64,000 nt of DNA from Antedon mediterranea (Eukaryota; Animalia; Echinodermata): positions 17,980,001 through 18,044,000 of the forward strand of contig NC_092671.1 of NCBI RefSeq assembly GCF_964355755.1, read 5' to 3'. The position numbers were made by a program, and so were the translations under genes. Positions 995-50,373 of this stretch are shown piece by piece (position 1 is the stretch's first letter; every line of letters begins with the position of its first letter). Below the pieces are notes generated by a model that made no database searches, was not told the DNA's origin, and saw nothing but the letters and a program-made list of their open reading frames with translations.

Positions 995-1745
995 CTGTTT
1001 ATATAAAAATGTAACAATTATTATGTTAACGCCTCTTTATTTTCTTGAGTATGTAATGAAATGTTTTAATAGAATCAACGTGTCATCTCAACAATAGATG
1101 AATATACATTGCTAGTAGTAGGCCTACGGTATAATTGGATTCTTAGAATAGATTGAAAACTTTTTTTCTTTAAAGACTAACAATAGACCTACTTATCTAC
1201 TACCACAAAAGAGAAAAAAAAAATAGACCTACTTATTATTTACAATTATACAATTATATCCTTCTTAAAGGCTTCCCTATAACTGATTACATTTAGTTAG
1301 ATAAAGGAAGAGTGAAATTTCACTCTTCCTGGTCAGATAATTAAAATAAGTCGTTATAAAAATGGACAGTTAGATACATGTTCAGAAATTCCGCAAGAGA
1401 ATCAGAAAGTCATCACGTGATATTATTACGTGTGTATTTTTCAGTCGCTTTTGTATGTAATGGCCATCATACAAAAAAAAGTAAAGAGCATTTCCTGGCC
1501 AGGTGGTGTACAGTCTGCTGGTGGTCTTTTTTAGTATGAAGACAAGGTGACAATAAAGCGTCTGAGATATACTATTTACCTTCTGTTTTTTTGTTTTGGA
1601 ACATTTCTAATACGTTAAGTTGTGGCATGGAGGTACAACATATATGTAAACCTCAATGGTTATAGTAATGATATTGAATCTCTGAGCTTATATTGATATC
1701 CTGTCCATGTCATAGCGCAAGAACTCCCTTTCAGTCAATACATAC

Positions 1746-1917
1746 CAATCATGATCTACCACCGCTACGACTAGAATGATCTCATCCATACATTCTGGTG
1801 TGACGTCAAAGACCATTGCTTCATTATACACAGGATTGAGGGTGTTCTTCTTGACTGTTGTTTTCCGTTTCTTGAGACGCTTACCTTGACTTATTAAAGA
1901 CACTTTGACATATGGAT
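1746..1917 (-). CDS. Synaptotagmin exon, C2B core
   Basis: ttccag acceptor, 172 bp encoding (D)[38 protein letters not shown]...VVDHD(W), donor TG|GTATG. Contains the C2B polybasic patch. Confidence 0.95.
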
Positions 1918-4900
1918 CTGGAATAAAGAATATCCAATTATATATAGCGTTACATATATGAAACATATTCGTTACTGAATCGAGTTTTCAAACTGAAAGT
2001 TATTATTTCTGGGCTGCTCTTTCGGTCTCTTCTATATATGTCATAGCTCTTGGGGCTCTTATTGCAATTAATTGGATTTAGCCCAAATAGTTCGTTTATT
2101 TCACAGTAAAGAGAACATTATATTTCCTTTATAACATCCTTCAACCAATCTTTGACAAGATATGTTGTTATATCCCATTACGTTTCAAAACACGCATGAT
2201 TTATCCAATCTAATCATCAATGAAAGTGTCTACGGCGCAGGGTACAGTGTTATCAACTGAATAACATCGCATATTGAAGTATTAGAGCATTAATCAATTA
2301 CATTGATTTGACATCACAGATTAGCTTACGGACATAAGGGTAATTTTGACACACACAAGGGAACCTAAGGCGTTAAGGAAACCAAATCTGCGAAAATTCG
2401 TGCTTAGCTAGCTGCATAAAGCATCTTTAGAATGAAAGAAACATAATTTCAAGATTATCAACATTGGACATCAGTTTGGTTTCATTATTCCAGCTATCAT
2501 TATCATGCTATGACAACTCACAATTTGACAATGATATGCTCAAATTCTTGTTATTTGATTAGAAGATTGTTGATCACATGATGTTTAAGAAAAAAGACTA
2601 TTACACGATCGTATGATTTGTACGAAAACAAAATCTTCTCGCGTACGAAAAAAAAAATCCCAAGGCCAACTGTGAACCTCCCTGGTGATTTTCACTAAAA
2701 TTTGCTTATCTACACTAGGCATAGGACTATGTTTCGGTTGTTGACATATTATGCATAGTAATAAATAAAATGTTTTATATAAGTGGTAGAGAATACTCCA
2801 TTTGTTGAAAGAGACTGTTCCGCTTCTTTAAATATAGCAATCATTCATGAAATATTTCCCACCATTCAACTCATGAAATATTCTCTACCATTCAACTAAT
2901 AAACGTTGATGTAAAACGGTAGCCGATAAACATACTTTAATATTTACTATTTCTGCTTTTATGATATACTGTATTCATTTTGTTTGGATATAAATGAATA
3001 TTTGAAGATGTGAGGATTTGATTAGGTAAGTACCTCATTATTATTTAACCATTTCCAGTAGTAGTGTGTATAGACGTAAACTGTGTATGTATGTACGCAA
3101 AATATCGTTATTAGAAAATAAATAATTGTGTGAGATTTGTTCGCCAAATTCATTTTCATCAGTATCTAATTTTGCATTTAGCCTTAGTATGGAGTATCAA
3201 ATGTAATCTAAACGCTGCTACATAAGCATATTGAATTATATATTATACTGATATATTAATTCGTCAATATGATTCATATGGTATAGTGAATGAAATGCAC
3301 AGTATTGTTGACATGGTTGGCGCTACATACAGCAACTGTCATCATCGTTTTGAAATGATTAACCTCTTGAACGCTATGCACATTATTCCTAAATACACTT
3401 AATGATCGAAATTATCACTGTAATCATTCATAAAAATTGTCCTACATTTAGCGGTTAAACAGACTGCTCCCTGTCCCAATTAAATGGTTACCAGTATTAT
3501 AAGTAAACGCATTATAATAAGACTAATTAAATAGAACAACATTTTGTATGCAGTAAGTGTATTTCCATCTAAATCTCATGATTGGTTTATTACGGTTATA
3601 GTAATTAATAGTCATTTCTCTGATATCTTATTTAATATTTCAATACAGTTATACATTCCAATTTTATGTTAGTATGTCAAGGTAAGTAAAAAAACCAACC
3701 TATTTTTGCACGCCTAGCGTGGACTAAACTGTCAATTTATAATGATAATATCTACTGGACAAGAAATCGACTTCTTCAGTACACGCTTTAACTTTATTAC
3801 GCTGTCTATAATTTGGTTTTATTTTTTCGGTTTATGGCAGAGATATAATTGATATCATTCTTATTGATATTTCTTGTGGTCTGCTAAACATTTCGTATAC
3901 AACATTCCTTTCTTGGTCCAATTGTTCTTTTGTTTGTCGTCAGAAGTATTATTAACTAAATGTGGCCATTTCAGTCGGCTGTATTTAATTCCTGGGCTCC
4001 ACTTTTTTTATTGTTCATTTAGTCGCACGTTACTACACGTTTGTCTACAGTGGAGTGCCATAGATAAGATTAATGGCATCCCCCTTAAGTTGGATATCAT
4101 CTTGGGGCCATTTCATGCGTGAATGGAGACCAAGCTTATTTGACAGTGTTACGATTACAGACATACGAGGCAATTTGAAAAAAACACTATTCATAATACA
4201 TTTTTTTTGGGATAGTAAATATCGGGTAGCTAAAACTTGTTTGAAGTTTAGAAAACTTAGAGATATTATGAAATAAGGTTGTGTCGAGTTATTGACAATA
4301 AATCAGATTGAACAACTTTAAGTCTATTGAAACCGACATAAATGGTTGAGTTCCCTCCGGCTTTTTAACTGATCGAATATGTATAATGGTAGTTTATGGA
4401 TACTGAATCTATCGCCGAATGGTTATATTGTTCTGTTTGAAAATGTTTGAACTTACCGTTGTTTTTCAAGTGGTTGTTTAATACTGTAAATATAGGCCTA
4501 AGTATTGAATTGGGGAACAAACATTCTTGAAAATCTGTTTTAAAAGCTAGGTGCGGGCAAAAAATTTCTATTGATCATACATTCCAATAATTATCGGTCT
4601 ATAGTTTCCCCTATGTTTCATAATTTTTGGGATTTTATTTGTGTTACAGGAGCTTTTTGAAAATTAGCACTTTCATATACTGATATGATAGTTCAAAATT
4701 ACACAGTAAAATCTCTATTTTTTTGTACACAAATTTTGAAAATAGAGAGGTATTTTAAAAAGCTATGAAAAATAAACGGTGTGGTAAAAAATGTTATCAG
4801 ATGACTAAATATAGGTAATATAACTTGAATTTTACATTTCTGGTATTTTTATTCAACTTCAGAATTTTATTTTCATGCTATAGCAAAAATTATCCACCGT

Positions 4901-10469: not shown

Positions 10470-11113
10470 AAAGGCTTAGTCTAGTGTGTATATATTGTTA
10501 TTTTATCTCAGTTTTCATTTATGAAAACCAAGAATGTTTTACAATCTCCAGTTCAAGGTAGCGATGTAATTGAAGACGCTGTTTAATTATAATGTCTTAT
10601 TAATCTTCATCTTATTTCCAAATGATCATTAAATCTTTGGTCAATACGTCTAGAATTTTGACAAATTACTAATTAGTTTAAGGTACATATGTCTAGTAAG
10701 CATTTAAAAAAACTGATAAGGTCAGACTTCAAGTCTAGTCGCACACTTATGTTCTATAGGCTAGTAACAGTTTTTAATTTTCCATCAAAAATAAAATTAT
10801 TTAATATAGGATAATTGAGAATCACTCTTAAGTATTATTTTTAATTCCACAATTTAATCAATTTGCATAAAAATATATTCAATTTGTTCTTTTTGTAAAA
10901 TGCACGATTAGAATCACTGTTGTATAAATAACTCTTAGGTCTTAACTTCGCCGAATAAGTGATTACAAATTTAATTTCAGTCGCAATGTTCTAATGAAAC
11001 CGAATTGTGTTAATTGAATTAACGTCGAATAGTTAATATCATTTTAAGAACAGATTGTTTACGTACATGCATAAGTTTCGATTTGGACTCTTGTTTATTA
11101 TATAGCCTCTTAC

Positions 11114-12003
11114 CTGACTTTGTGTACTGTAAATATCCAGTTGAAAAGTTCTTGCACCCCTTGTTGGATCCACTTTATTCATCAAATCATCAACAGATAT
11201 TTCTCCAATTAAATCATGCCGGGAAAACCGATCAAAATCATATATTGTAAATTTGAGAGATTTTTCGGATAAATCCGAATAGGCAACATTAAATTCAAAA
11301 GTTTCGTGAAAGGTAGGGTTGCAGGTTTTCCGATGAACTTTAGTTTGGAATTTTTTACGGTCTGGATAGAGATATATTTTAACATACGGGTCTGAGGTAC
11401 CGGAGAAGTCTTTGGCTGGTAGTCCCGTTGCTCTAATAACGTGAACCATTAAACTTTCGCTCGGTTGATCATATTTTAATGATACTTCCATTTTGCCACA
11501 CAATTGTCCCCGGGATTCCGCCTCATTAAAAACATTACGATATAATTCTGGTCTCAAGATTCCAATTTTAGGCTCCTCTTTGAGATGTTTTTTTATTTCA
11601 AACTCTACACTTCGTGATGGGCTACCTTGTAAGGAAAGTTGTTTACGGAAGGCTTCTTGTCGCTGTTTTTGGGTAAGTAGCGGCACAGTCGCCTGTCTTG
11701 GAAGCACCTTTGCCGGTGAAGACATTGGAGAGAATGCGGTGTTGTAGTCGTTGTGATTGTTTCGTTCGATAGTCGTCGGTGATAGATCATGCATTGAAGG
11801 AGGTACCCCGTCACTCTCTACGTCAGTATCATCTTCGCTGAGGTGCCAGTACTTGCGATGTACAACCTGTGTACTTGTTGAGCGACTGAGCGATCTTGAA
11901 CGTCGACATACGCAGAGAACAGATAACACAGCCACGAAAATAATCACCAACGCAGAGGTAATTGGAATCGCTACGGCTTGCCAAGGGACATGTATGACGT
12001 TAC
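11114..12003 (-). CDS. Synaptotagmin (Syt3/6/9/10 group) exon encoding TM helix, linker and complete C2A domain
   Basis: Pyrimidine tract and AG acceptor at 12005-12004 (phase 1); donor CAG|GTAAGA at 11113 (phase 0). Encodes hydrophobic ALVIIFVAVLSVLCVC followed by RRSR, then C2A motifs LPAKDFSGTSDPYVKIYL and IYDFDRFSRHDLIGE with all five Ca2+-binding aspartates. Confidence 0.93.
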
Positions 12004-12984
12004 CTATGAGAGAGAAAAAAAAATGTTATTATTACATCCGTCTATTTACTTTTAAATTAAACGCCCAAAACTCATTTACACGCACTTTGTATACTTAGAT
12101 TTATTAATAAACGTGGCAATCTCAATTGACTATTTAACAGGCTTCACTCAGCACGATTTGCTTTCTTTGTTATGATTTCTAATAATAGCGATTCTGTTTG
12201 ATAGATAAATCAGAATAATTGACACACGACAAAATATTTGTATTGTTACTTACAGATTCTGTTGATTAGTTTTTAACTTTAGGTAGAAACTGTACATGCA
12301 TTTGAAGGATGTTACACGGATACACACAACTTATACGACGTAACTCAAAGAAGCATTTATAGAATATGTCATAATGCTTTAATAGTTACATTGATAATTT
12401 GCATACCGACATTTATTAGACATGCGCATTCTTTAAAAAAATTCTATTATTATGTTGCTAGTGGGTATTTTTTTTAATCAATTTGAATCTCTATGCAGAT
12501 TAAAGCAGTATAGTTGTATATCACAGATCTATTAGCAAATTTCAAGCCGATGTGCATTTTATAATTACAATCGATGCTTTAGGTAATGAAATCAGCAACA
12601 AAAAATAGGCCATACAAGAACATTGTAATTATAAGTACACATTTAATTTATCATTAGTACCAATTTTGAATATTTACTTTTTTTTTAATCTGACTGATTG
12701 GAGATGTGGGCGGAGTAATCGGCATATCAAAGTATATAATTTTTTTTAAATTTTAATTCTTTCTTTATTCAGTTGTTTTTTTACTACACGCAAGTTTATA
12801 ATAATTTAGATTAATTATTGTTGGTGTTGTTGAGATTGACTTAAGCACATTACGTACGATTGAACATCAGAAGTATAGACAACGAATCAAATAAAGTCCA
12901 TGTATCTTTATTCGTACATAACTCGTTGAGATTATGTAAAAGAGGATTTTAGATCTCTAACACACACTTATACATTATTTAGCC

Positions 12985-24729: not shown

Positions 24730-27700
24730 TTATAAATTTCTGTTGAAGCAGGCTCTAATGAAGTTGCATCTAGTAAATTGACTTTGTTGTACAACTCTAT
24801 CAAGTACTGATGGTATCTTCCGACCTCTTCGTTTACTTTGTGTTGTGTGAAAAGTAAGAATTTTTGTAGGATCTTCATTTTCTTTTCTAATTACATGTCC
24901 GATCCAGTTGAATTGTTGCTTGTAGACATATTCTTCTAGCGGTTGACAGCCAGTAATTTTGTAGAGATCGTCATTATCAATTACGTAACGCCAGTCTATA
25001 TAGTTTTCATCTGTTTCTTCATCTGAGGATATGTCTACATGGTTTGGTGGGCAGACTCTTTGAAAGCCATTCACTAGCATTCTTCTTAGGAAGGTTTTGT
25101 ATGTTGTGCTAAGTTTGGACATTTCACTTCCTGTTGCCCTCCAAGCATGGCAACCATAGGTAAGTCTACTCCTAACTAGACCATTAAGAAACATCATTCT
25201 TGTTTGTAGGTGGATCGTTCTGTTGGTAAGCAATGCCCTATTCTCTGCAAATGCTCCTTTGGCTGAATTGATTCTGTATTTTACTTCTTGATCTCCAATA
25301 TGAACATCATTGTAGGTAGCCCATACACCAAGGTATCTAAAGTGTGTTACGTTGTTAATGTGTACGCCGCCAATTTGTATGATGCATCTTGGGTATTCTT
25401 CAACTTCCTCTTTCCAGTTCCATATAATGGTTTCTGTTTTGGGGGCACTAATTCTTAGACCAAATTCCAGACAAACTTTATTCAAGATGTTCACAATGGT
25501 TTGCAGTTCTTCTTGTAACCAGGAGCTTACAGCAAAGTCGTCAGCATAGCCACTTTCAAAGTCGTCATAGATGCCCCTTGATGGTGCTTTACATCTTTGA
25601 GCACGATTTGTAGCTTCAATAGGAATTAGGTATTGTATCATTAGGCCATCCAAACTAGCATCTTTACAGCGTTGTTTGAACACTCTAATAACGTAATCAA
25701 AATATTGGTTAAACATGCTGGTACTCTCAATACCACCCTGTCGCACCCCAGAAGATGTTTCGAACTTATCACCACTCGGATCGTCGTCAGCAAGGTATGC
25801 TTTCGTTGAGCTGTACAGTGATTGTATAATGTCAATCATAGTAGTAGACTGGTTTAAGTGAAACCTATTACGAACGCTTAGGAAAAGAAGATTACGATTC
25901 ACATGGTCGAATGCTGCTGTTAAATCAATGAAGCATTTATAGAGTTTGCGATTTGAGCGATACGCAATTTCCTGGATCTGCTTGATTACATATATAGCAT
26001 CATTGCACCCTCTGTTGGACCTGAATCCAAACTGTGTGCGTAGAAGTTGACTTTCATAAAAGATGGAAAAACGTGAAAGAATGATAACCATAAGTATCTT
26101 TGAAAATGTAGACCCAATCGATATTCCTCTATACATTGATGGATCAAGTGGACTGCCTTTTTTTTCCAAATGGTTGTTAATTTGGACAGTCCCCAATCAC
26201 TTGGTACTTCTTTCGTTCTCCAAATTTCCTCAAACAGTCTATGTACATGGTCGACGAATACTGGGTTCTCTGTGGCGACTTGCAACATTTCAGAAGCGAC
26301 ATCTAGGGTAGCTTTGCGACCTTTTAGATGTCCGATTGCATCAATAATTTCTTTCTTGGACGGAGGTTCATTGTCTATCTCTAGCTATCTCTACTATGAT
26401 TGACATTATACAATCACTGTACAGCTATCTGGTTGTCTCAGGTTGATAATATATTCTGGAGGTGTGCTAATTTCATCTGGGATTTTAAGGCTAGATTGGT
26501 CTGGATTAAAGTGATCTTTAAAGTCTTCACGTAATCCAGGACATTTTATAGGCTTTGGTGCTTTTCTTATAACATCACCGTGCTCTTTAGCTTTTCTCCA
26601 TAAATCAAATATTTTTCTATTTTGGTGGGCTTCATTTAACTTGCTTGCTTCTTCATACAAATATTCATTCCGTAGTTCCTTCACCCTTATCTTAATTGCT
26701 TTCTGTATAGCCTTGATCTCCTCTTCTTTGTAGGTAACTGTGCTTTTGTTAATATTCTTTCTTTCTTTTATAAGCTGTTGTAGTCTTTCATCACCATCCC
26801 AGGGATGAGCATTTTGGTTTCTTGTTTTCTTCGGGACTTCTTCAACTGCCTTATTTAGCACTGTCATAAGTGTTGTATAGCGCTCAGTTGATGTAGTGGT
26901 TGTTGTCTTTTCAGGAGAAGTAATTTTATTAATTTCTTCTTCTATCTTTGTTTTAACATTATTTCTTACTTCTCGATCTTTAAGTTTACTCATGTTGGCT
27001 CTCTTGCTCTGTTTTTTCTTTTTATGCTTCTTCCACCTGGCTGCTTTGTTGGCTGGTGTTGTCATATTACTCACAAGGATTCTATGATCCGACGAAAGAT
27101 AATAGTTGTTATAGACTCTTGTGTCAGTAACATACTTCCTCAACCAGTGATCACATATGTTGTAATCTAGTGTTTTCTTTGTAACACCATCGTTGCTATG
27201 CCAAGTGATCCGATGAACGTTTGGATGGTCAAACCAGGTGTTCAGTATGCATAGCTTGAAGTCAGAGCAGTAGTTGATGAGTCTTGTGCCATTGTCGTTA
27301 CTAATGTCATCTGTGTCTTGAAATCTATGTAGGTTTTCATCAAAGAGTGATTTTCTGGTTGTTATTGTTGATGTTGCATTAAAGTCTCCCATCAGTAAGA
27401 GTTTTGTGTTGTTCTCGACTCTTGTTACTTTGGAGAGTTTTGCATAGAAAATATCCTTTGATGATTCTGAACCGGATTCCGTAGGAGAGTACGCAGACAC
27501 AATTCTTAATTTACAATTTTTTATTGTGACGTCTATTGCCATTAGGCGTTCATAAACATAATAAACATTAGACACTTTGATATGGGTGACTGTTTGATGG
27601 CAATAGCAACCCCATACATCTTTTTGATTTTCAGTCCAGTCCAGTATACATTGTAGCCCTCATGTGAGATTGCACCGGTACCAATCCGTCTCACTTCCTG

Positions 27701-35396: not shown

Positions 35397-36073
35397 CAAC
35401 GTTATATAGAGACATTATAGCAACGTTATAGCAACGTTTATAGAGACATAGAAACATTGCAGCAACGTTTTAGAAACGTTTATAGAGACATAGCCACATT
35501 GCAGCGACGTTTATAGAAACAGCAACATTGCAGCAATGGTGTAGCAACGGTTACATAGACATAGCAACATTGCAGCAGCAATGTTGTAGCAACGTTTACA
35601 GAGACATAGCAACATTGCAGCAGCAATGTTGTAGCAGCGTTTACAGAGACATAGCAACATTACAGCCATGTTTTAGCAACGTTTATAGATACGTAGCAAC
35701 ATTACAGCAACGTTTTAGCAACATTGCAGCAATGTTGTAGCAACGGTTACAGAGAAATAGCAACATTGCAGTAGCAACATTAGGGCAACGTTTACAGAGA
35801 CATAGCAACATTGCAGCAGCAATGTTGTAGCAACGTTTACAGAGACATAGCAACATTACAGCCATGTTTTAGCAACGTTTACAGATACGTAGCAACATTA
35901 CAGCAACGTTTTAGCAACATTGCAGCAATGTTGTAGCAACGGTTACAGAGAAATAGCAACATTGCAGTAGCAACATTACAGCAACGTTTACAGAGACATA
36001 GCAACATTGCAGCAACGTTTTAGCAACGTTTATAGAGACATAGCAATATTGCAGCAACGTTGTAGCAACGTTT
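35397..36073. repeat. Compound minisatellite of GCAAC(A/G)TT-based subunits with higher-order repeat
   Basis: Repeated agcaacattgcagcaacgttt / acagagacat blocks; an approximately 195-bp block recurs near 35590 and 35785. Confidence 0.9.
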
Positions 36074-37357
36074 TAAAAAACACTTTGAACATGTATAGGT
36101 AATATTGTAACATCATTATGGAAACATTAAAGAAATGAAATGTTATATAGCACCTGTCTACATTTCCATATTTAAATATCTTTAAGTCGCACTTCCTTCC
36201 CCACACCCAGTATGCATTACGTTATTGGTGATTCAGGTCGTTAGGCTAGTAATTTACACACATCAAATTTGAAACAAAATAAAAACGAAATGCACTCGAG
36301 GAAATTTGCTTTATTGTTGTAAAGAATAATAGTATTACTAGTAGTTACCATAGTCATTCTGTCTTGATTCATAATTAATTAATATTTATCACACTCCGCT
36401 AATGTTGCATGACCTAGAATTATATATCAATCGAATGACGATGTTGATCATACACTGGAGTATTCATTAACAATATTAATACTCTTCATTTTTAAACGTG
36501 AACATTGGTTAACCATAAATAATGTTAGACCCTGCGTACTTAACAAATGATATATCATATTTCTTGGAGGATACAGTAAGACATTACTCTTAATCTAGAA
36601 CTTTTTGTTTGTTTCGTTCATTTATTAACAAATTGTTGTGCATTGTTTTTTTTTTTGGTGTTTAACTCACTCGAATTTCGATTTCTAAGAGTTTAAGAGT
36701 AAGATATAAATATACATCATTATGCTCGTAAACATGTTACCTGAATTTGTAATTGGTAAGTTTTTTTTCAACGAAATGAAGAATTAGATGGATAGAATTC
36801 TGCTCGTAGAGGGCGCGTGTTATATTGTTCTTATGTTAGAGTACCCAATGAGGTAGGCCTGCTGCTTTACTTGTAAGATATAATTACTAGCACACTAAAT
36901 GTTAAAATAAATAAAATATCTCAAAAAAGACGACTTATCAAGTTCAATTGTGTATTGTAAATAAATAATAAGCAATATTAAAGTGTATAGCTCCACCTAG
37001 AAAATTTCTATTTTTCATATATTAAATGTTATTTAAAAACATCATCCCTCATAAGAGTATTCCATAATTTTGCCTTGAATTTTATTCTGTGTTGATAAAA
37101 ATGAAAAACATTCCAATAATACTCATTTTTAGTATTTACCAAATTAATTTCAGGCATTCTTACCGTTGTAAATGTTCCCTTCGCTCTGGAGGTGAAACGG
37201 TGAGCGTGTGCTTAGCTCTGAACCCGCCATTACAAAATGCATTCTGCAAAAAAGAAAGTTTGAAAGTTATTTCACAATGTATAGTAAACCAAGATACGTT
37301 CACGTAAGTGTATATCTGTCTATAATTGTTAAAACATAATATGTATTTCCGAATGAC

Positions 37358-37951: not shown

Positions 37952-38272
37952 CAATACAGTCTCACTCCATACCCGATATATTTCAAGAGCTTGGCAAGAC
38001 ATATCTTCTTAACTATTATTATTCCGCTCTGAGCTAGTTAATCAATAATTCAGTACTTTCTGTAATTAGAAATCACTACATAAAACCGTACTCCTAATTG
38101 GTTATTAAATGATTGATAAATTCTTGATGTATATCTCGAATTATCAATAGAAAATCAGAATTAACATTTAATTATATCCCAACCATTAAATTAAAGTATT
38201 CAATAAACTATCGTACCACGCCGAGAATGTTAAAGAGTCGCTATCCAATCAAGTTCGAACAATACCATGAAA

Positions 38273-38344
38273 GCCCCAGTGGTCTAATGGTTAGGACATC
38301 TGCATATCAAGCAGGCGGTCCGAGTTCGAGTCTCGGTTGGGGCG
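38273..38344 (+). tRNA. tRNA-like gene with anticodon ATC (Asp-decoding), copy 1; may be a SINE head or pseudo-tRNA
   Basis: 72-nt cloverleaf: acceptor GCCCCAG/TTGGGGC, D arm, anticodon stem TCTGC/GCAGG with loop ATATCAA, T arm CCGAG-TTCGAGT-CTCGG; TTTTT terminator just downstream. Confidence 0.6.
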
Positions 38345-38637
38345 ACTTTTTCTCATTCTCACAGATTTCCTCATCTTTATCGTTTCAAATTAATTAATTA
38401 AATTTCAGTATATCACCGGGCGGTTTAGAATTAATGTTCTTTGCCTGATTTGTTTATATATATAAAAAGTATCTCTTCGGAGATCCCGCCTCGGGAATAA
38501 AAATACTGTAAGATGAGGGCGTATCAATTTGATCTCTGGTGCGCGTGCGTACAACTGAGAACTAGTGCTGTTCCGCCGTACCACGCCGAGAATGTTAAAG
38601 AGTCGCTATCCAATCGAGTTCGAACAATACCATGAAA

Positions 38638-38709
38638 TCCCCAGTGGTCTAATGGTTAGGACATCTGCATATCAAGCAGGCGGTCCGAGTTCGAGTCTCG
38701 GTTGGGGCG
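38638..38709 (+). tRNA. tRNA-like gene with anticodon ATC, copy 2 (G1->T)
   Basis: Identical to copy 1 except the first base; part of a 365-bp-period duplication. Confidence 0.55.
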
Positions 38710-38816
38710 ACTTTTTCTCATTCTCACAGATTTCCTCATCTTTATCGTTTCAAATTAATTAATTAAATTTCAGTATATCACCGGGCGGTTTAGAATTAAT
38801 GTTCTTTGCCTGATTT

Positions 38817-39258
<442 letters not shown>

Positions 39259-39763
39259 CAATTATTAGCTAAAATGCATTATTGAGTTTGGTCAACACCG
39301 CGCATTTTATGATTGAGGGCAGTAGACTTAAAAATTATTAAACTTTTTATTTGTACAGAATTTCACCAACCGTTGGCAACGTCTTTCTTAAAGTTAAGCT
39401 CCACCCAGAACATTTCTATTTTTCATACATTTATGTTATTCAAAAATATCATGCCTCATACTTCATATTTTTTTTTAATAGTTTTCAAAACGATTTTCTT
39501 GAAAATCACGCCTTTTCGTAATTATGCTAGGGAGTATTATCACGTGACATTTTTCACGATCACACTATTGTACCGGCATAATCTGTTCTCGTCGCGAAAT
39601 TGTTTTTGACGGGTGAAAAGTATATTAAAACATTCTGGATGTGACCCTATCATGTTTTCACTGTATAATGATGTCATTATGAGATTATTACTAAAATGTC
39701 AAATTTAACGAGATCTGAAAAAGACGTGGCTATATATTCAGTAAAGCTAGGCCTACTAGGTCT

Positions 39764-40266
39764 TGTTACCGTAGGCGTCCATCATAAATAAATTACAAAT
39801 TTTGTAGATACTGATGTTCCTTTATTTATTCTCTGAACTATCTCTTGTATCTCTACAAATTACAGTATCATTAGCAACTTGAATAAACACCGTGAAAACT
39901 ATAATAAAACAAAGATTAGCATTACAATGTAGGCCTAATCATATCATCATCGTACAGGCAGACAAGCACAGGTCTGACTCATGGGGCTGGGGAACATGAT
40001 ACCCTAAAGCCTAGGGCTAGCTCTCAGCAATGAAGTAAAACTCAACTAATTAAAAATACAAGTCATAAGTTATAATTACAATCACATGAATAACCATGTG
40101 TAAATACCTTGTAGCCTTATTGGAGCCTATGGTAAAGATACTTTGAACAATGATTATCTCTAAACTTTATGTCATAAAAAATGTCTTATAAAATGTCTTA
40201 TTCTCTCTTATCACTTTTTATTTATTTGAACTCTAGAGGGCCTCCTATAAGTAGGCTGCAGTTACA
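39764..40266 (-). repeat. 3' LTR
   Basis: Direct repeat of 43302-43804; begins TGTAAC and ends TAACA on the minus strand; AATAAATAAA near its end. Confidence 0.95.
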
Positions 40267-40398
40267 CTCCCACCCAAATCATCTATGATTTAACCTTAAC
40301 TCCCACCCTTGCCAGAATAAACACAAGTAATGCAAAACTGGAAGTATATTAACAATATTTACCAAAACTATAAAGAATAAGTTAACAGTTTGTATTTT

Positions 40399-43323
40399 TT
40401 AATTCTTTTCGTTCACTTGTTGAAGCTCGACTTTTATATTTACAATTTGTTCCTTTAATTCTTTTCCTTGATTTTCAATCCAATCTTTATTCCGATTCTG
40501 CTCCGTTGATACCTTCTCTTCAGATATATCATTTATTCCTTTGAAGAGCTTTTTCGTTTCCTCCTCTAGCATAATCTCATGCTTTTCAGTTAATTCATCT
40601 GTGATTTTCTTTGTAACAGCTTCAATCTCTTCTGCATGAGATTCTGCTAACTGCTGTCGAATGTTCTGGAATTCTTGAACAAATTCGTTCTCTTTGTCCG
40701 ATTTTTCAGTACAGAATTGAACCTTGAAATGGTCTTCAACTTCTTCTACTTTGGGTTTCATTTTGCGATCAATTTCAGCAACAACTTCAGAACGCTGTTG
40801 GTTTAATGCAATGCGATGGATATCTTCTTGATGGGCACTTTCATCTTCAAACCTTTTCCGATATTCATTTTCCAATCTTTCCTTTTCATCAATAAACTGG
40901 GTAACTCTTTCATCTAACTCTGAAGTTTTCTTCTTTATTTCTTGGTTAGCTTCATCAAGCTCTCGATGAAGTTGCAAAGTTACATCTTCTTCTTTCTCCA
41001 TTTTCTCTGTTAGTTCCTTGTTGTGATTATTAAGAAGTGCAACTTGATCTTCGAAGTCTTTTTGGATGTTCTGACAAGCCTCTAAGTCCATCTCTTTCTC
41101 ATCTAATTGGTCTTGGAGTTCCTTTAAATTCTGTTCTAATGCATCTCTAATTTTGTTGTTAGTTTCAGCATCTTCTTCACATTTCTTTTGCAATTCTTGC
41201 ATTTCATTCTGGTGTCTTTCCTGCAGCTGTGACTTAATCATAACAATTTGTTGTCCATAAGTCTCATCAAGTTCTGCATGTAGTAAAGCCAATTGTTCAC
41301 TAATGTTAGATGGATTAGACGCTACAGCCTGTTGAAGTTGTTTGTTCATATAAGCAAGTTCGTCATCTGATTTCCCTTTAACCAGATCTCTTTCTTCTTT
41401 AATTTCTGCTAACTCATCATTTTTCTTAGCATACTTTGTGGCTAAATCCTGCAATAGTGTCTCTTTCTTAGTGACGGTCTCTTGTAACTTGATAACCTGC
41501 ATTTGTGCTTCAGTTATCTCGTGAGCTGAATCTCTCTCCTTTACATGGAGACTTGTTGGATGTCTCCTTTGGCAAATTTTACAAATACTTTTCTGGTTAC
41601 AGTTCCTTGACACATGGCCATGTTGTAAGCAGCTGAAGCATAGACCATTTTGCTTGATGTATTGCTGTTTTTCGGTTTCAGGTTTTCTGGCAAACGCTCT
41701 GCAGTCACTTAGGTGATGGTTATTCATTTTACACATGAAGCATGATGGCATTCCACTGATACTGGTGGCTAGCGTTTGAGATTGGTTTCGATATCTTGAA
41801 CTTTTTTCTGTGAATTTTGTTTCATTTTCTGGTATTAAGGTAACAGGATCGCAAACAATTTCGGCTTCGGTCGTCAAAAATGTGGAAAAGTCATTGAATG
41901 TTGGATAACTACCCTTGATTTGCATAGCGCTCACTGCGTTTCTTCGCCATCTATTCACTAACCAATCTGGTAATTTTTGAAGAATTTTCCGGTTTTCTCT
42001 GCTGTCATTAAGAACTTCTAAGCCTTTCATTTCCTTCATTGCTATGTTGCATTGGTTCAGAAAGTCAGAGAGTCGCCTAAGGCCATTGTAATCTCTTGCT
42101 TGAATCCTTGGCCAGCTGTCTAATTTGTCTCTAAATGCTTCGGAAACTATAAATGGATTTCCATATCTTTTTTCTAAAACTGCTTTAGCGTTTTCATAAG
42201 CATGTTCACCTTGTAGCAGAAAGTATCCACTGACAACTTCCTTTGCTGGGCCTCCTATGTATCTCTTAAGGTAGTGAATTCTGTCTGCCTTAGAAATTCC
42301 TTTATTTTCGATTAACCATCTAAAGGATGCGTTCCAATCATAGTACTTAAGAGGATCGCCATCGAATATTGGTGGCTCTGGTGCTGGTATGCGGTTCATA
42401 CTGAAGGCTAAAGAAAAGGCTTCTGCTAAAGCGTTTAAGTCTGTGGTACTGCTAGATTGATTTTGAGGCATTGTCGGTTGGGCTGTTGTTGCTTGTGTCT
42501 GTGTCATTAGAGGTTGAGGTTTGGTTAAGTTGCAAAACCTTAGTGCATGATCATTTGAGGTTTGGTGTGGTGTGGTCATAATTTCTCCATATCCGTTCTG
42601 AATTTCCTGTTGAATTGCATCAACTCGTGCATTCTCTACAGCTGCAGCTTGTTTAGCCTCTAAAACTTTGAACTCTGCTTCAGCTTTGGCATGTTCTGTT
42701 CTTTGCTGTGCTTCCCGCCTTATTTCTTCAAGCCTTGCTTCTGCTTTTTTAATTTCCATTTCAGCTTCCTTTGCTGTAAGGTCTGCTTTCTGTTTAGCCA
42801 TTTTTTCAGCAAATTGAGCAGTTTTGTTGGCTGCAGCAGCATTCGCCACAGCTTGAGCTTTAATGCTAACAATAGATCGACATGAACTCCTTGATGCTGC
42901 AGATTTTGAGGCTTGACACTCCAGGGCTAATGCATGTGCCCTATCCATAGCGCTTGTTATACTAGCTTGGATGGAGTTGGTAATGGTGAGATATATGTTC
43001 TCATTCTCCAGGTGATCTTCGCGATGAATACCATCTCTATCTTGTGCATACAATTTATTCAATACGCACCAAGCATCACTATATTCCTTTAATGCAGCTT
43101 TAGCTTTGCATAATGCAGTTTGTATCTCAAATTCGTCACTTGAAACATCTTCTAGTTCACTTGATGCTTCTTGAGCCTTTCTCTGAGTTTGACTCAACAG
43201 TTTTACTTCAGTAGCAATGCTAATTGACAGGGCCTTAGCTGTAGGGCGTCTCTCACTCTGTTCTCTTAGATTCATTGAGTTTTCATCAGCTAAGTTTTCA
43301 CTATTACCGTAGGCGTCCATCAT
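40399..43323 (-). CDS. Gag (BEL/Pao, DUF1759-like capsid + 3 zinc knuckles) fused to AKAP9/pericentrin-like coiled coil, 974 aa
   Basis: PPIFDGDPLKYYDWNASF...RIHYLKRYIGGPAK...LEKRYG...ILQKLPDWL capsid-like region; knuckles CFMC..H....C, CFSCLQHGHVSRNC, CKICQRRHPTSLH; then ~380 aa E/K/Q-rich heptads including LHAELDETYGQQIVMIKSQL. No protease, RT or integrase motifs. Confidence 0.88.
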   Translation of the reverse strand: MMDAYGNSENLADENSMNLREQSERRPTAKALSISIATEVKLLSQTQRKAQEASSELEDVSSDEFEIQTALCKAKAALKEYSDAWCVLNKLYAQDRDGIHREDHLENENIYLTITNSIQASITSAMDRAHALALECQASKSAASRSSCRSIVSIKAQAVANAAAANKTAQFAEKMAKQKADLTAKEAEMEIKKAEARLEEIRREAQQRTEHAKAEAEFKVLEAKQAAAVENARVDAIQQEIQNGYGEIMTTPHQTSNDHALRFCNLTKPQPLMTQTQATTAQPTMPQNQSSSTTDLNALAEAFSLAFSMNRIPAPEPPIFDGDPLKYYDWNASFRWLIENKGISKADRIHYLKRYIGGPAKEVVSGYFLLQGEHAYENAKAVLEKRYGNPFIVSEAFRDKLDSWPRIQARDYNGLRRLSDFLNQCNIAMKEMKGLEVLNDSRENRKILQKLPDWLVNRWRRNAVSAMQIKGSYPTFNDFSTFLTTEAEIVCDPVTLIPENETKFTEKSSRYRNQSQTLATSISGMPSCFMCKMNNHHLSDCRAFARKPETEKQQYIKQNGLCFSCLQHGHVSRNCNQKSICKICQRRHPTSLHVKERDSAHEITEAQMQVIKLQETVTKKETLLQDLATKYAKKNDELAEIKEERDLVKGKSDDELAYMNKQLQQAVASNPSNISEQLALLHAELDETYGQQIVMIKSQLQERHQNEMQELQKKCEEDAETNNKIRDALEQNLKELQDQLDEKEMDLEACQNIQKDFEDQVALLNNHNKELTEKMEKEEDVTLQLHRELDEANQEIKKKTSELDERVTQFIDEKERLENEYRKRFEDESAHQEDIHRIALNQQRSEVVAEIDRKMKPKVEEVEDHFKVQFCTEKSDKENEFVQEFQNIRQQLAESHAEEIEAVTKKITDELTEKHEIMLEEETKKLFKGINDISEEKVSTEQNRNKDWIENQGKELKEQIVNIKVELQQVNEKN

Positions 43324-43804
43324 AAATAAATTACAAATTTTGTAGATACTGATGTTCCTTTATTTATTCTCTGAACTATCTCTTGTATCTCTACAAATTA
43401 CAGTATCATTAGCAACTTGAATAAACACCGTGAAAACTATAATAAAACAAAGATTAGCATTACAATGTAGGCCTAATCATATCATCATCGTACAGGCAGA
43501 CAAGCACAGGTCTGACTCATGGGGCTGGGGAACATGATACCCTAAAGCCTAGGGCTAGCTCTCAGCAATGAAGTAAAACTCAACTAATTAAAAATACAAG
43601 TCATAAGTTATAATTACAATCACATGAATAACCATGTGTAAATACCTTGTAGCCTTATTGGAGCCTATGGTAAAGATACTTTGAACAATGATTATCTCTA
43701 AACTTTATGTCATAAAAAATGTCTTATAAAATGTCTTATTCTCTCTTATCACTTTTTATTTATTTGAACTCTAGAGGGCCTCCTATAAGTAGGCTGCAGT
43801 TACA
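43302..43804 (-). repeat. 5' LTR
   Basis: Matches the 3' LTR except that it ends TAATA instead of TAACA; contains the first in-frame ATGs of the ORF. Confidence 0.95.
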
Positions 43805-44455
43805 GGTCTGTACTGATGCTGCATGGTCTAGCTAGGCTATGATAGCCTTACAGCAGTGAGGTTTGTTCTGGCACCCAACCTCGGACTACTCATGATAGGG
43901 TGTCTGAATAATTGCTCTTCAGTCAGGCCTAGGCTTCCATATCGCTAACCTATTTTGTGATCTGAGCAATAGAATTTGTAAAGGATTTTGTGTTTAAAAA
44001 TTCTTAATGTGGGATAAATGGGGCGAACGACCAAGCTTTTCGAACCCATGAATACATAGGCCTGGTCCTATACATAAATGAGTATGAGCCTACTATGAAA
44101 GAGTAGACGGCCTAGCTACTGTAGGCCTAGCTTAAAATGAATAAGCAAGTTAATTATGAAGCTGTTATACAGTGCAAATCATGATGATAATATTTTTATC
44201 TGAAATATTACTTATGACATTATTACCTAAACAAATTAATTGTGTGTATACAATTGATTCGCCATTTTTCGACACTATAATTTACTAAAGGGGAGAAATT
44301 AAACCAACGAACAAAACGCGTCCATCGCCAAATGTAACAACGTATAAACTAATAACCCCTAACTTACTGAACAAGTGTAATGTATTAAAAACACTATTTT
44401 CTGACCGATTTTTTAGAAATAAGTTTTTAGAAAATATTGTCATATTTTCCCGGTT

Positions 44456-48412: not shown

Positions 48413-49444
48413 TTTTGTAACTCCAGCCACAATTTTAAAAAGGTTAGATGGGTGAAATTGCCATTGTAAAGCTAATGTGTTGAAAGAAAAACTATAAAGC
48501 TGATTTTTTTTTTCAATAATTTAAATAGAAAGGAAGACTAAAATGATTTTTAAAATACTATAAATAGAAAGAAAAAATAAGCTGATTTTTAAAATAATTT
48601 AATTAGAAAGGAAAGGTTCTTTTATTAAAGATAGACAACTATTTTGAAAAAAAGTTAAACAAACGACATGCTTTATCAATGGATTTATTTGCTCCTCCCT
48701 AATAATATATTATGATGTTTTACAATTTGTCAAGTGAAATATTCAGATGATACGTATCCATTTACAGATAACCTTGTGCAAACGTTTTCTGATCAATTTG
48801 AATTGGAACCTAGCCACTCTCGTCTGTAATTAAAGCTATGTTATTAAATATAATCGAGATAATGCACGTATTTATGCCATTGTGCATTACGTCATTATTA
48901 TGAATTAATCATGCATAACGGAGAGTAACTAGCGCCATCACACAACTATACTAATTAAAACAACTACGTTTACCCCACTGCGTTAACATTTTCTACAAAA
49001 ATACATAAATCTAATTTTTTTTTGGTTGGTGGTATTGTGTAAAAACAAATAAGAATAGTTTCATGTGCCTATGTACTAATTTATGAAACAATATAATATA
49101 AATATTGATAAATTAAACAAAAAGATACATGTTGGTTCCTTCTCTGTTCTGCTGTAATACCAAGTCGGATCATCTCTTTTATTTTACAAAGGTGTTATAA
49201 CATTAATACGTTGTGGTTTACCTCATTTTCAATGACAGTACCGTCACGTGATTTATGATAGCGAAATCAAATCCGACATTGCTAACAGTCATTGATCACA
49301 TGATCTTCATATAACGATCTACACATTAAACGAATCTAAATGTACAATAAAGGTTATTAATGTGCTATATCATATATATTGACATGTAGCCTTTATTCTA
49401 TTTTAGTAGCACCTTCTAAGAAAGATCAATTATGTAAACATATT

Positions 49445-50373
49445 GTACGAGTTTGACCAGCCTGTCCTCTGTGTACGAGTTTGACCAGCCTGTCCTCTGT
49501 GTACGAGTTTGACCAGCCTGTCCTCTGTGTGCGAGTTTGACCAGCCTGTCCTCTGTGTGCGAGTTTGACCAGCCTGTCCTCTGTGTACGAGTTTGACCAG
49601 CCTGTCCTCTGTGTGCGAGTTTGACCAGCCTGTCCTCTGTGTACGAGTTTGACCAGCCTGTCCTCTGTGTACGAGTTTGACCAGCCTGTCCTCTGTGTGC
49701 GAGTTTGACCAGCCTGTCCTCTGTGTACGAGTTTGACCAGCCTGTCCTCTGTGTGCGAGTTTGACCAGCCTGTCCTCTGTGTACGAGTTTGACCAGCCTG
49801 TCCTCTGTGTGCGAGTTTGACCAGCCTGTCTTCTGTGTGCGAGTTTGACCAGCCTGTCCTCTGTGTACGAGTTTGACCAGCCTGTCCTCTGTGTGCGAGT
49901 TTGACCAGCCTGTCCTCTGTGTACGAGTTTGACCAGCCTGTCCTTTGTGTGCGAGTTTGACCAGCCTGTCCTCTGTGTACGAGTTTGACCAGCCTGTCCT
50001 CTGTGTGCGAGTTTGACCAGCCTGTCCTCTGTGTGCGAGTTTGACCAGCCTGTCCTCTGTGTGCGAGTTCGACCAGCCTGTCCTCTGTGTACGAGTTTGA
50101 CCAGCCTGTCCTCTGTGTACGAGTTTGACCAGCCTGTCCTCTGTGTACGAGTTTGACCAGCCTGTCCTCTGTGTACGAGTTTGACCAGCCTGTCATCTGT
50201 GTACGAGTTTGAACAGCCTGTCCTCTGTGTACGAGTTTGACCAGCCTGTCCTCTGTGTACGAGTTTGACCAGCCTGTCCTCTGTGTACGAGTTTGACCAG
50301 CCTGTCCTCTGTGTACGAGTTTGACCAGCCTGTCCTCTGTGTACGAGTTTGACCAGCCTGTCCTCTGTGTACG
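49445..50373. repeat. 28-bp minisatellite, ~33 copies
   Basis: Unit (A/G)CGAGTTTGACCAGCCTGTCCTCTGTGT head to tail with no spacers. Confidence 0.97.

Follow-up and report, generated by a model that had tools for sequence, protein, structure and literature searches.

What becomes of a retrotransposon once a piece of its host has taken the place of its pol gene? The question is raised by an element on the minus strand of contig NC_092671.1 of the feather star Antedon mediterranea, inside a stretch of 64,000 nucleotides (nt) that is called the window here and to which all coordinates refer. The element has the build of a BEL/Pao long terminal repeat (LTR) retrotransposon with a complete Gag and no pol, and in pol's place it carries about 1.13 kb of host sequence from a gene of the AKAP9/pericentrin family, in frame with Gag. 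It exists in several near-identical copies that fall into two subgroups, and its captured part has changed in a near-neutral pattern. With good though incomplete confidence, we read it as an element copied in trans whose AKAP9 part travels as a passenger. Among animal examples of host sequence transduced into fusion with gag by a retrotransposon that is not infectious, this one is unusually clean, young and rich in copies; its genome also contains the donor gene and, probably, the helper, so that selection on such fusions becomes directly testable.

The original prediction of a complete element is borne out by a 5-bp target-site duplication (TSD), a purine tract and two LTRs that are identical for 501 nt and differ in a single base, the penultimate one (TA at the 5′ LTR, CA at the 3′ LTR). 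With LTRs so nearly identical, the window insertion is, on sequence grounds, young. The single open reading frame (ORF) is, as had been claimed, uninterrupted for 974 amino acids (aa); to this can be added that its ATG, at 43323, falls inside the 5′ LTR, within the final 22 nt. The stop is at 40399-40401, and the ORF list holds no other frame of at least 80 aa in the element. Both LTRs have in common four substitutions and a 12-nt duplication (39988-40226 and 40178) that are absent from the majority contig in runs X1 and X2 of organism A; the window copy therefore stems from a parent that already carried these variants when it transposed.

The first part of the ORF is a BEL/Pao Gag, with a DUF1759 capsid-type domain and three zinc knuckles. 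In a search limited to proteins of 1706-4870 aa, every one of the 21 matches was a Gag-Pol polyprotein of BEL/Pao type, bearing PF05380/PF18701/PF03564, and the best were 41-53% identical in Gag. Similarity stops at aa 592-609 in 20 of the 21 and continues weakly to aa 689 in the remaining one. Past the third knuckle, these relatives proceed to the protease region, and Pfam finds no pol domain in the 974-aa ORF (a Flg_hook match lay below the cut-off and was rejected). The likeness to Gag-Pol relatives (P0006-P0016) includes DUF1759, the three knuckles, the LTR ends, the purine tract and the start of the internal region; the difference is the loss of protease, reverse transcriptase (RT), RNase H and integrase. 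The ICTV profile defines the Belpaoviridae by LTRs of 0.2-1.2 kb, a polypurine tract of about 10 nt and priming by tRNA-Arg or tRNA-Gly (PMC8742986). LTRs of 503 bp, a tract of 9 nt and capsid and nucleocapsid domains of BEL/Pao type agree with this family, whereas the four pol activities that it requires are missing. Because pol is absent, the element is classed as a non-autonomous derivative and not as a full member.

Where, then, does the rest of the ORF come from? Contigs of a related organism (B) supply the answer. Two of them (X7, 6717 nt; X10, 4890 nt) match the element only at 40458-41531, and in X10 also at 40401-40466, and then diverge on both sides; beyond the match their loose ends stay open both ways, in register with the 974-aa ORF. 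The insert is 94-95% identical to the host gene of organism B, and 92-95% over all host versions. Between the two captured pieces, the host contig holds 387 nt (129 codons) that were skipped in frame, with a 9-nt overlap at the jump. Run X1 has the same host continuation at 40401, along with host-type insert variants at lower depth. An 18-nt indel is not specific to the element, for X1 host-type contigs lack it too, and it was left out of the in-frame coincidences. Gag runs to residue 597 or so, and the junction lies at about 41531. One X1 contig of 213 nt (40458-40670, summed depth 109.5) has no differences from the window, while a host-type contig at 40827-40997 has 14 in 171 nt; this contrast possibly reflects sequence that the element and the host gene exchanged afterward, or difference rows that were not listed.

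At the protein level the donor is equally distinctive. Against 1.84 billion representatives, the C-terminal 380 aa gave four matches, namely the element itself and three AKAP9-like proteins (one from Lytechinus, a “putative A-kinase anchor protein 9” from Apostichopus, and one unnamed relative). A profile of these matches leads to a Saccoglossus AKAP9-like protein of 4778 aa (E 8e-83), which the captured part also matches directly (66.6 bits) at aa 253-416 and 602-684. Besides the element, the protein matches are confined to N-terminal regions of echinoderm and hemichordate AKAP9/pericentrin. Real scores are 61-80 bits, versus at most 37 bits in shuffles (per target, 200 by residue and 200 by heptad block), and the N-terminal coiled coil of Gag itself scores 17-20 bits. 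The captured segment is homologous to the N-terminal coiled coil of a protein that bears a PACT domain; in the Saccoglossus protein this domain occupies aa 4554-4635, outside the matched regions, and Pfam finds no PACT (PF10495) in the window ORF or in RefSeq copy P0003. Because PACT is absent, the segment counts as a fragment and not as a member of the AKAP9/pericentrin family. By its sequence, the insert is a sense, in-frame piece of the N-terminal part of the host AKAP9/pericentrin gene, without PACT. No Antedon AKAP9 protein was found among proteins of 666-2000, 1706-4870 and 2796-5000 aa or among the representatives, which is weak evidence of its absence, since it may exceed these lengths or lack an annotation. 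There is no match among solved structures, and a single-sequence fold of P0003 has a mean pLDDT of 44.9.

The replacement of pol by a host AKAP9 fragment, which had been put forward from the sequence alone, is thus upheld by the host contigs and by the match to a PACT-bearing homologue, and the scores set it apart from a generic coiled coil. The loss of pol after the third knuckle also stands, with the junction moved from about 41540 to about 41531; the AKAP9-like motif is present and is refined from about 41285-41210 to 41212-41283. Could the junction have been made by the assembly, through a false joining of gag to an AKAP9 exon? Among the contig pieces listed, none spans the whole stretch. 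However, the same junction recurs in three annotated proteins on three contigs, an X1 contig (41502-43331) crosses it by 30 nt, and element-type and host-type insert variants coexist in X1; an artefact is extremely improbable.

How the fragment was acquired can be approached through a known class. Tan et al. (2016) describe LTR elements whose internal ORFs have given way to pieces of host mRNA, among them a Pao element (BATUMI) with three switches, and report further retroposition (PMC5131818). Like these LTR-mediated retrocopies, our element has a host fragment in place of an internal ORF between two intact LTRs, on the sense strand and with more than two switches, and it has gone on to retropose without autonomy. 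It belongs to this published class, and the surprise of the arrangement is lowered because the class holds such cases. It differs in its complete Gag in frame, its two subgroups and an element-side divergence of at least 2% with the frame still open. What is added to the known class is the complete in-frame Gag fusion, the amplification into subgroups and the scaffold donor. The literature searched holds no paper on the element itself or on AKAP9 capture.

According to the history that we favour, the RT of the parent element would have switched from the end of gag to a co-packaged AKAP9 mRNA, jumped 387 nt within this mRNA at a 9-nt repeat, and then switched back into the element's 3′ region. 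The surviving LTRs, polypurine tract and primer site would permit copying by the Pol of a helper, an autonomous sister element. Minus-strand synthesis would be self-primed in a Tf1-like manner, the first nine bases of the RNA pairing at the primer site. The frame would have stayed open by luck, possibly assisted by advantages in cis: translation reaching close to the 3′ LTR would avoid nonsense-mediated decay, and the element's own Gag would favour packaging. Microsimilarity was compared at one of the three switch points, the internal jump, which has the 9-nt overlap. One short purine-rich motif is found twice, at 40398-40418, where the captured sequence ends on its 3′ side, and at 40454-40474, by the internal jump.

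The template could also have been DNA: break repair or gene conversion would have copied a host exon into an element already integrated, which was mobilised afterward. The 1,074 nt of piece 1 are uninterrupted in a probable genomic contig (X7), so that the insert crosses no intron there, no spliced junction marks an mRNA template, and intron loss is uninformative as a test of capture. Yet the sense orientation, the clean replacement of pol and the microhomology jump form the template-switch pattern seen in PMC5131818, and a DNA route is improbable.

Has the chimera moved since? Three A. mediterranea RefSeq proteins (P0003, P0004 and P0005) are 98% identical to the window ORF and have the same junction. 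They lie on three different large contigs (31.7, 36.2 and 28.6 Mb), and the exact window protein is absent from the collection that holds them. All three extend 40 residues past the window copy's stop. The window copy and P0003 form one subgroup, P0004 and P0005 the other, with 12-14 residue differences between them in Gag (aa 126-598) and five or six in the captured part. Because the copy-variable Gag positions are mostly variable in 11 relatives too, they say little about Gag decay. Further retroposition to dispersed sites is evident from the three proteins on three contigs and from a second LTR flank, seen as a loose end in X2. There are at least three dispersed copies, probably four. In X2, contig depths sum to 330-460 over the element, and the contig that links the window copy's 5′ LTR with its flank has a depth of 44, which hints at some 8-10 copies, depth not being a copy number. 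In organism B (X7), an LTR about 92% alike stands between different flanks.

A candidate for the helper also appears in these runs. An X2 contig (depth 142) fits the window up to 40402 and again from 41516, with other letters in between; gag depth in X2 (460) exceeds insert depth (330-390) by about the amount of this contig, and X1 has the same gag-sharing variant without the insert at depth 9, versus 57-72. These depths hint at a sister element that shares gag and the 3′ region, a putative partner through which the family would have been mobilised in trans. The original prediction had expected both mobilisation in trans and an autonomous partner; the further copies on three contigs bear out the movement, the trans route is inferred, and the putative sister element gives a hint of the partner. 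A different role for the fusion would be that of a restriction factor serving the host, its chimeric Gag co-assembling with the capsids of the autonomous family and poisoning them. Dominant-negative Gags offer an analogy, and the full Gag, the bulky C-terminal fusion and the lack of pol suit it. Still, the LTRs are near-identical and the insertion young, dispersed copies in two subgroups with 12-14 Gag differences point to a mobile family and not to one kept gene, and the fused form was not seen among the organism B contigs listed, which makes this role very unlikely.

If the fusion moves, is its captured part under selection? The substitutions were taken at 26 insert sites where the window differs from a host state common to both organisms, out of 40 listed of 279 difference rows; the 14 listed rows left out comprise seven in the flanks, five in the LTRs, one in gag and one at the stop. 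Seventeen of the 26 are non-synonymous and nine synonymous (17 versus 6 without three window-private sites), with 20-26% synonymous expected under neutrality. Across the transition weights and site sets used, the ratio ω takes values of 0.46-0.99; its exact 95% intervals have lower bounds of 0.19-0.37 and upper bounds of 1.2-3.1, and P for a synonymous excess is 0.05-0.57. P0004 and P0005 retain the host residue at two of the 26 sites; changes there therefore accumulated inside the element family. Strong constraint on the captured part is unlikely, and at the amino-acid level the AKAP9 part is likely a passenger. The best reading is that the frame stays open by luck or for reasons at the RNA level, specific residues not being required. 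Escape from nonsense-mediated decay and packaging by one's own Gag amount to cis selection on the RNA, from which an open frame with freely changing residues is expected.

Several points weigh against such a passive history. The junction is in frame (chance 1/3), as is the 387-nt gap (1/3), and 23 substitutions have brought no stop (chance 0.22-0.31). The tail beyond the window's stop is open for 39 codons in 3-4% of local shuffles, and both open and hydrophobic in 0.2-0.5%. Of 37 related loci, which are not independent, the tail region has any open frame in six and a hydrophobic stretch in two. P reaches 0.05 when the window-private sites are counted and no transition bias is assumed, and the ω interval (about 0.2-3) may be compatible with moderate constraint. 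The RNA route is unproven, with no intron crossed by the insert, and the partner's pol and distinct target sites for the other copies are presumed.

Such points lend some appeal to a selected tether, in which the Gag-AKAP9 protein, with or without the tail, would dock capsids at the cis-Golgi/microtubule-organising region of germ cells and outcompete the helper. In its favour are a frame open across two junctions and 23-26 substitutions, and a hydrophobic tail (Kyte-Doolittle 19-mer mean 2.24) that is present in three of the four copies and rare in shuffles. By position only, the captured part (Saccoglossus aa 253-416) overlaps human AKAP450 aa 159-463, a region that binds GM130 and the Golgi (PMC3105543). 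As a hint, insert depth exceeds that of the putative partner in both organism A runs. On the other side stand an ω of about 0.5-1.0, the missing PACT and the young, freshly inserted window copy, which has no hydrophobic tail. Moreover, it was the long ORF that drew attention to the element, a choice that pre-selects in-frame cases. PMC5131818 gives 17 young retrocopies in flies, 14 of them in frame anyway, frame in the part considered here being relative to the parent gene and not to a Gag fusion. A selected tether is unlikely, and neither the selection on the fusion nor the centrosome tethering raised in the original prediction is supported so far, given these ω values and the fact that PACT was not captured.

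The passenger reading has an older parallel in the gag-onc fusions of defective transforming retroviruses, where Gag is joined to a transduced host coding fragment, pol is lost and propagation depends on a helper. Gag, the host coding fragment and the loss of pol recur here, as, by inference, does helper dependence. The element differs in having no env, in a donor that is a scaffold coiled coil and not a signalling oncogene, and in that selection on the host part is unsupported. Another parallel is found in the Pxyfem Masc retrocopies of the diamondback moth, multicopy joints of a host mRNA fragment to the gag of an LTR element (PMC9674220); those are decayed elements that yield antisense silencing RNAs, whereas ours is intact, with a sense, in-frame fusion. 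They set a precedent for an RNA-level effect, in which AKAP9 sequence supplied by the chimera would enter small-RNA pathways, with modulation or silencing of the host gene as the outcome. The insert's identity of 92-95% to the host versions would suit such an effect, but its sense orientation does not, and we give it little credence.

How would an element of this kind prime its own copying? No TGG occurs within 30 nt after the 5′ LTR, and judged by this absence, the 18-nt tRNA-Arg or tRNA-Gly primer site of the Belpaoviridae profile (PMC8742986) is lacking. Instead, 43301-43293 is perfectly complementary to 43438-43430, which lies in the LTR 137 nt upstream; 63 of 20,000 LTR shuffles contain such a match. 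The comparison was extended to 79 related BEL/Pao loci from metagenome contigs, partly redundant, of which 71 have the Gag core and eight have both LTR ends. Among these eight, a complement of 7-13 nt lies 97-186 nt before the LTR end in six, and one of only 5 nt is found in two. In a motif-based scan of the 71 Gag-core loci, a complement of at least 7 nt occurs at 14 of 40 candidate LTR ends and at 2 of 89 control motifs (Fisher P 9e-7, with partly redundant loci and seven distinct 9-mers). The complementary letters change on both sides together across related loci (L004, L017, L024, L035, L050, L055, L061, L068 and L079), the LTR stretch lying about 80-220 nt upstream. The upstream partner is often preceded by TTTC or similar, suggestive of an initiator-like start; we take the sequence there to resemble the Inr consensus. 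Duplex energy reaches p <= 0.05 in only 9 of 24 ends, and the fold of the whole region (43270-43450) is unexceptional (z -1.1): the signal is an exact, covarying, position-bound complement and not one of energy.

Tf1/Sushi, Tcn1 and TAR, which are Ty3/gypsy and Ty1/copia elements, likewise have a primer site that can pair with part of their own 5′ LTR (PMC6317226); ours is a BEL/Pao element with a predicted RNA start. We consider it quite likely that the covarying pairing serves self-priming, although a half-tRNA primer may be an alternative. Self-priming of BEL/Pao was not reported in the literature searched, Repbase and subscription journals, which may note it, lying outside that search; the primer-binding site is not treated in PMC554778 or PMC3118150. 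If self-priming is true, the tRNA priming given for BEL/Pao (PMC8742986) does not extend to this lineage, whose members would be missed or wrongly bounded by LTR finders that insist on a site for a tRNA primer. An unlikely combination is that a large marine lineage of self-priming BEL/Pao elements exists and that, jointly, this member recruited onto its capsid protein the Golgi-docking N-terminal arm of AKAP9 and a membrane-type tail out of its own 3′ region, with the result that chimeric particles would dock at the Golgi/microtubule-organising region of germ cells and out-replicate the helper.

Table 1. Features of the element and their coordinates in the window
Feature	Position	Strand	Remark
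Complete non-autonomous BEL/Pao-derived LTR element, 4041 bp	39764..43804	-	
5′ LTR, 503 bp, TG...TA	43302..43804	-	
LTR stretch complementary to primer site	43430..43438	-	self-primer and 5′ start of the RNA, both predicted
Primer-binding position, 9 nt, not beginning with TGG	43293..43301	-	complementary to 43430-43438
Single ORF, 974 aa, Gag + AKAP9/pericentrin fragment	40399..43323	-	
DUF1759 (PF03564), BEL/Pao capsid-type domain, aa 320-463	41935..42366	-	Pfam, E 2e-13
Three zinc knuckles, aa 528-593 (starts aa 528, 562, 581)	41545..41742	-	Gag homology ends here
Captured host piece 1, 1074 nt	40458..41531	-	59 differences and one 18-nt indel versus organism B host contigs
Best-conserved AKAP9/pericentrin motif, aa 681-704	41212..41283	-	
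Captured host piece 2	40401..40466	-	organism B contig from run X10, 4890 nt
Element 3′ region	40279..40398	-	39 open codons past the window's stop; hydrophobic tail in three database copies
Polypurine tract, 9 nt	40267..40275	-	adjoins 3′ LTR
3′ LTR, 503 bp, TG...CA	39764..40266	-	
Target-site duplication, 5 bp	39759..39763 + 43805..43809		

The surroundings of the element are themselves repetitive. Its flanks (39500-39763 and 43805-44063) belong to another high-copy repeat that hosts the insertion, and paralogous repeat copies join both flanks; joints of this kind were rejected as an empty allele of the site, as they differ from the flanks by 10-15%. Elsewhere in the window, 24730-27659 on the minus strand is a LINE-type element whose endonuclease and RT lie in two frames, both broken, and 11039-12025, also on the minus strand, is a large exon, read as synaptotagmin-like, that encodes a C2 domain and a hydrophobic stretch. 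A 28-nt tandem array of 33 copies (49444-50373) is open in three frames, another array (35412-36083) is based on a 42-45-nt unit, and a near-perfect 253-nt duplication (38212-38829) lies beside TA microsatellites.

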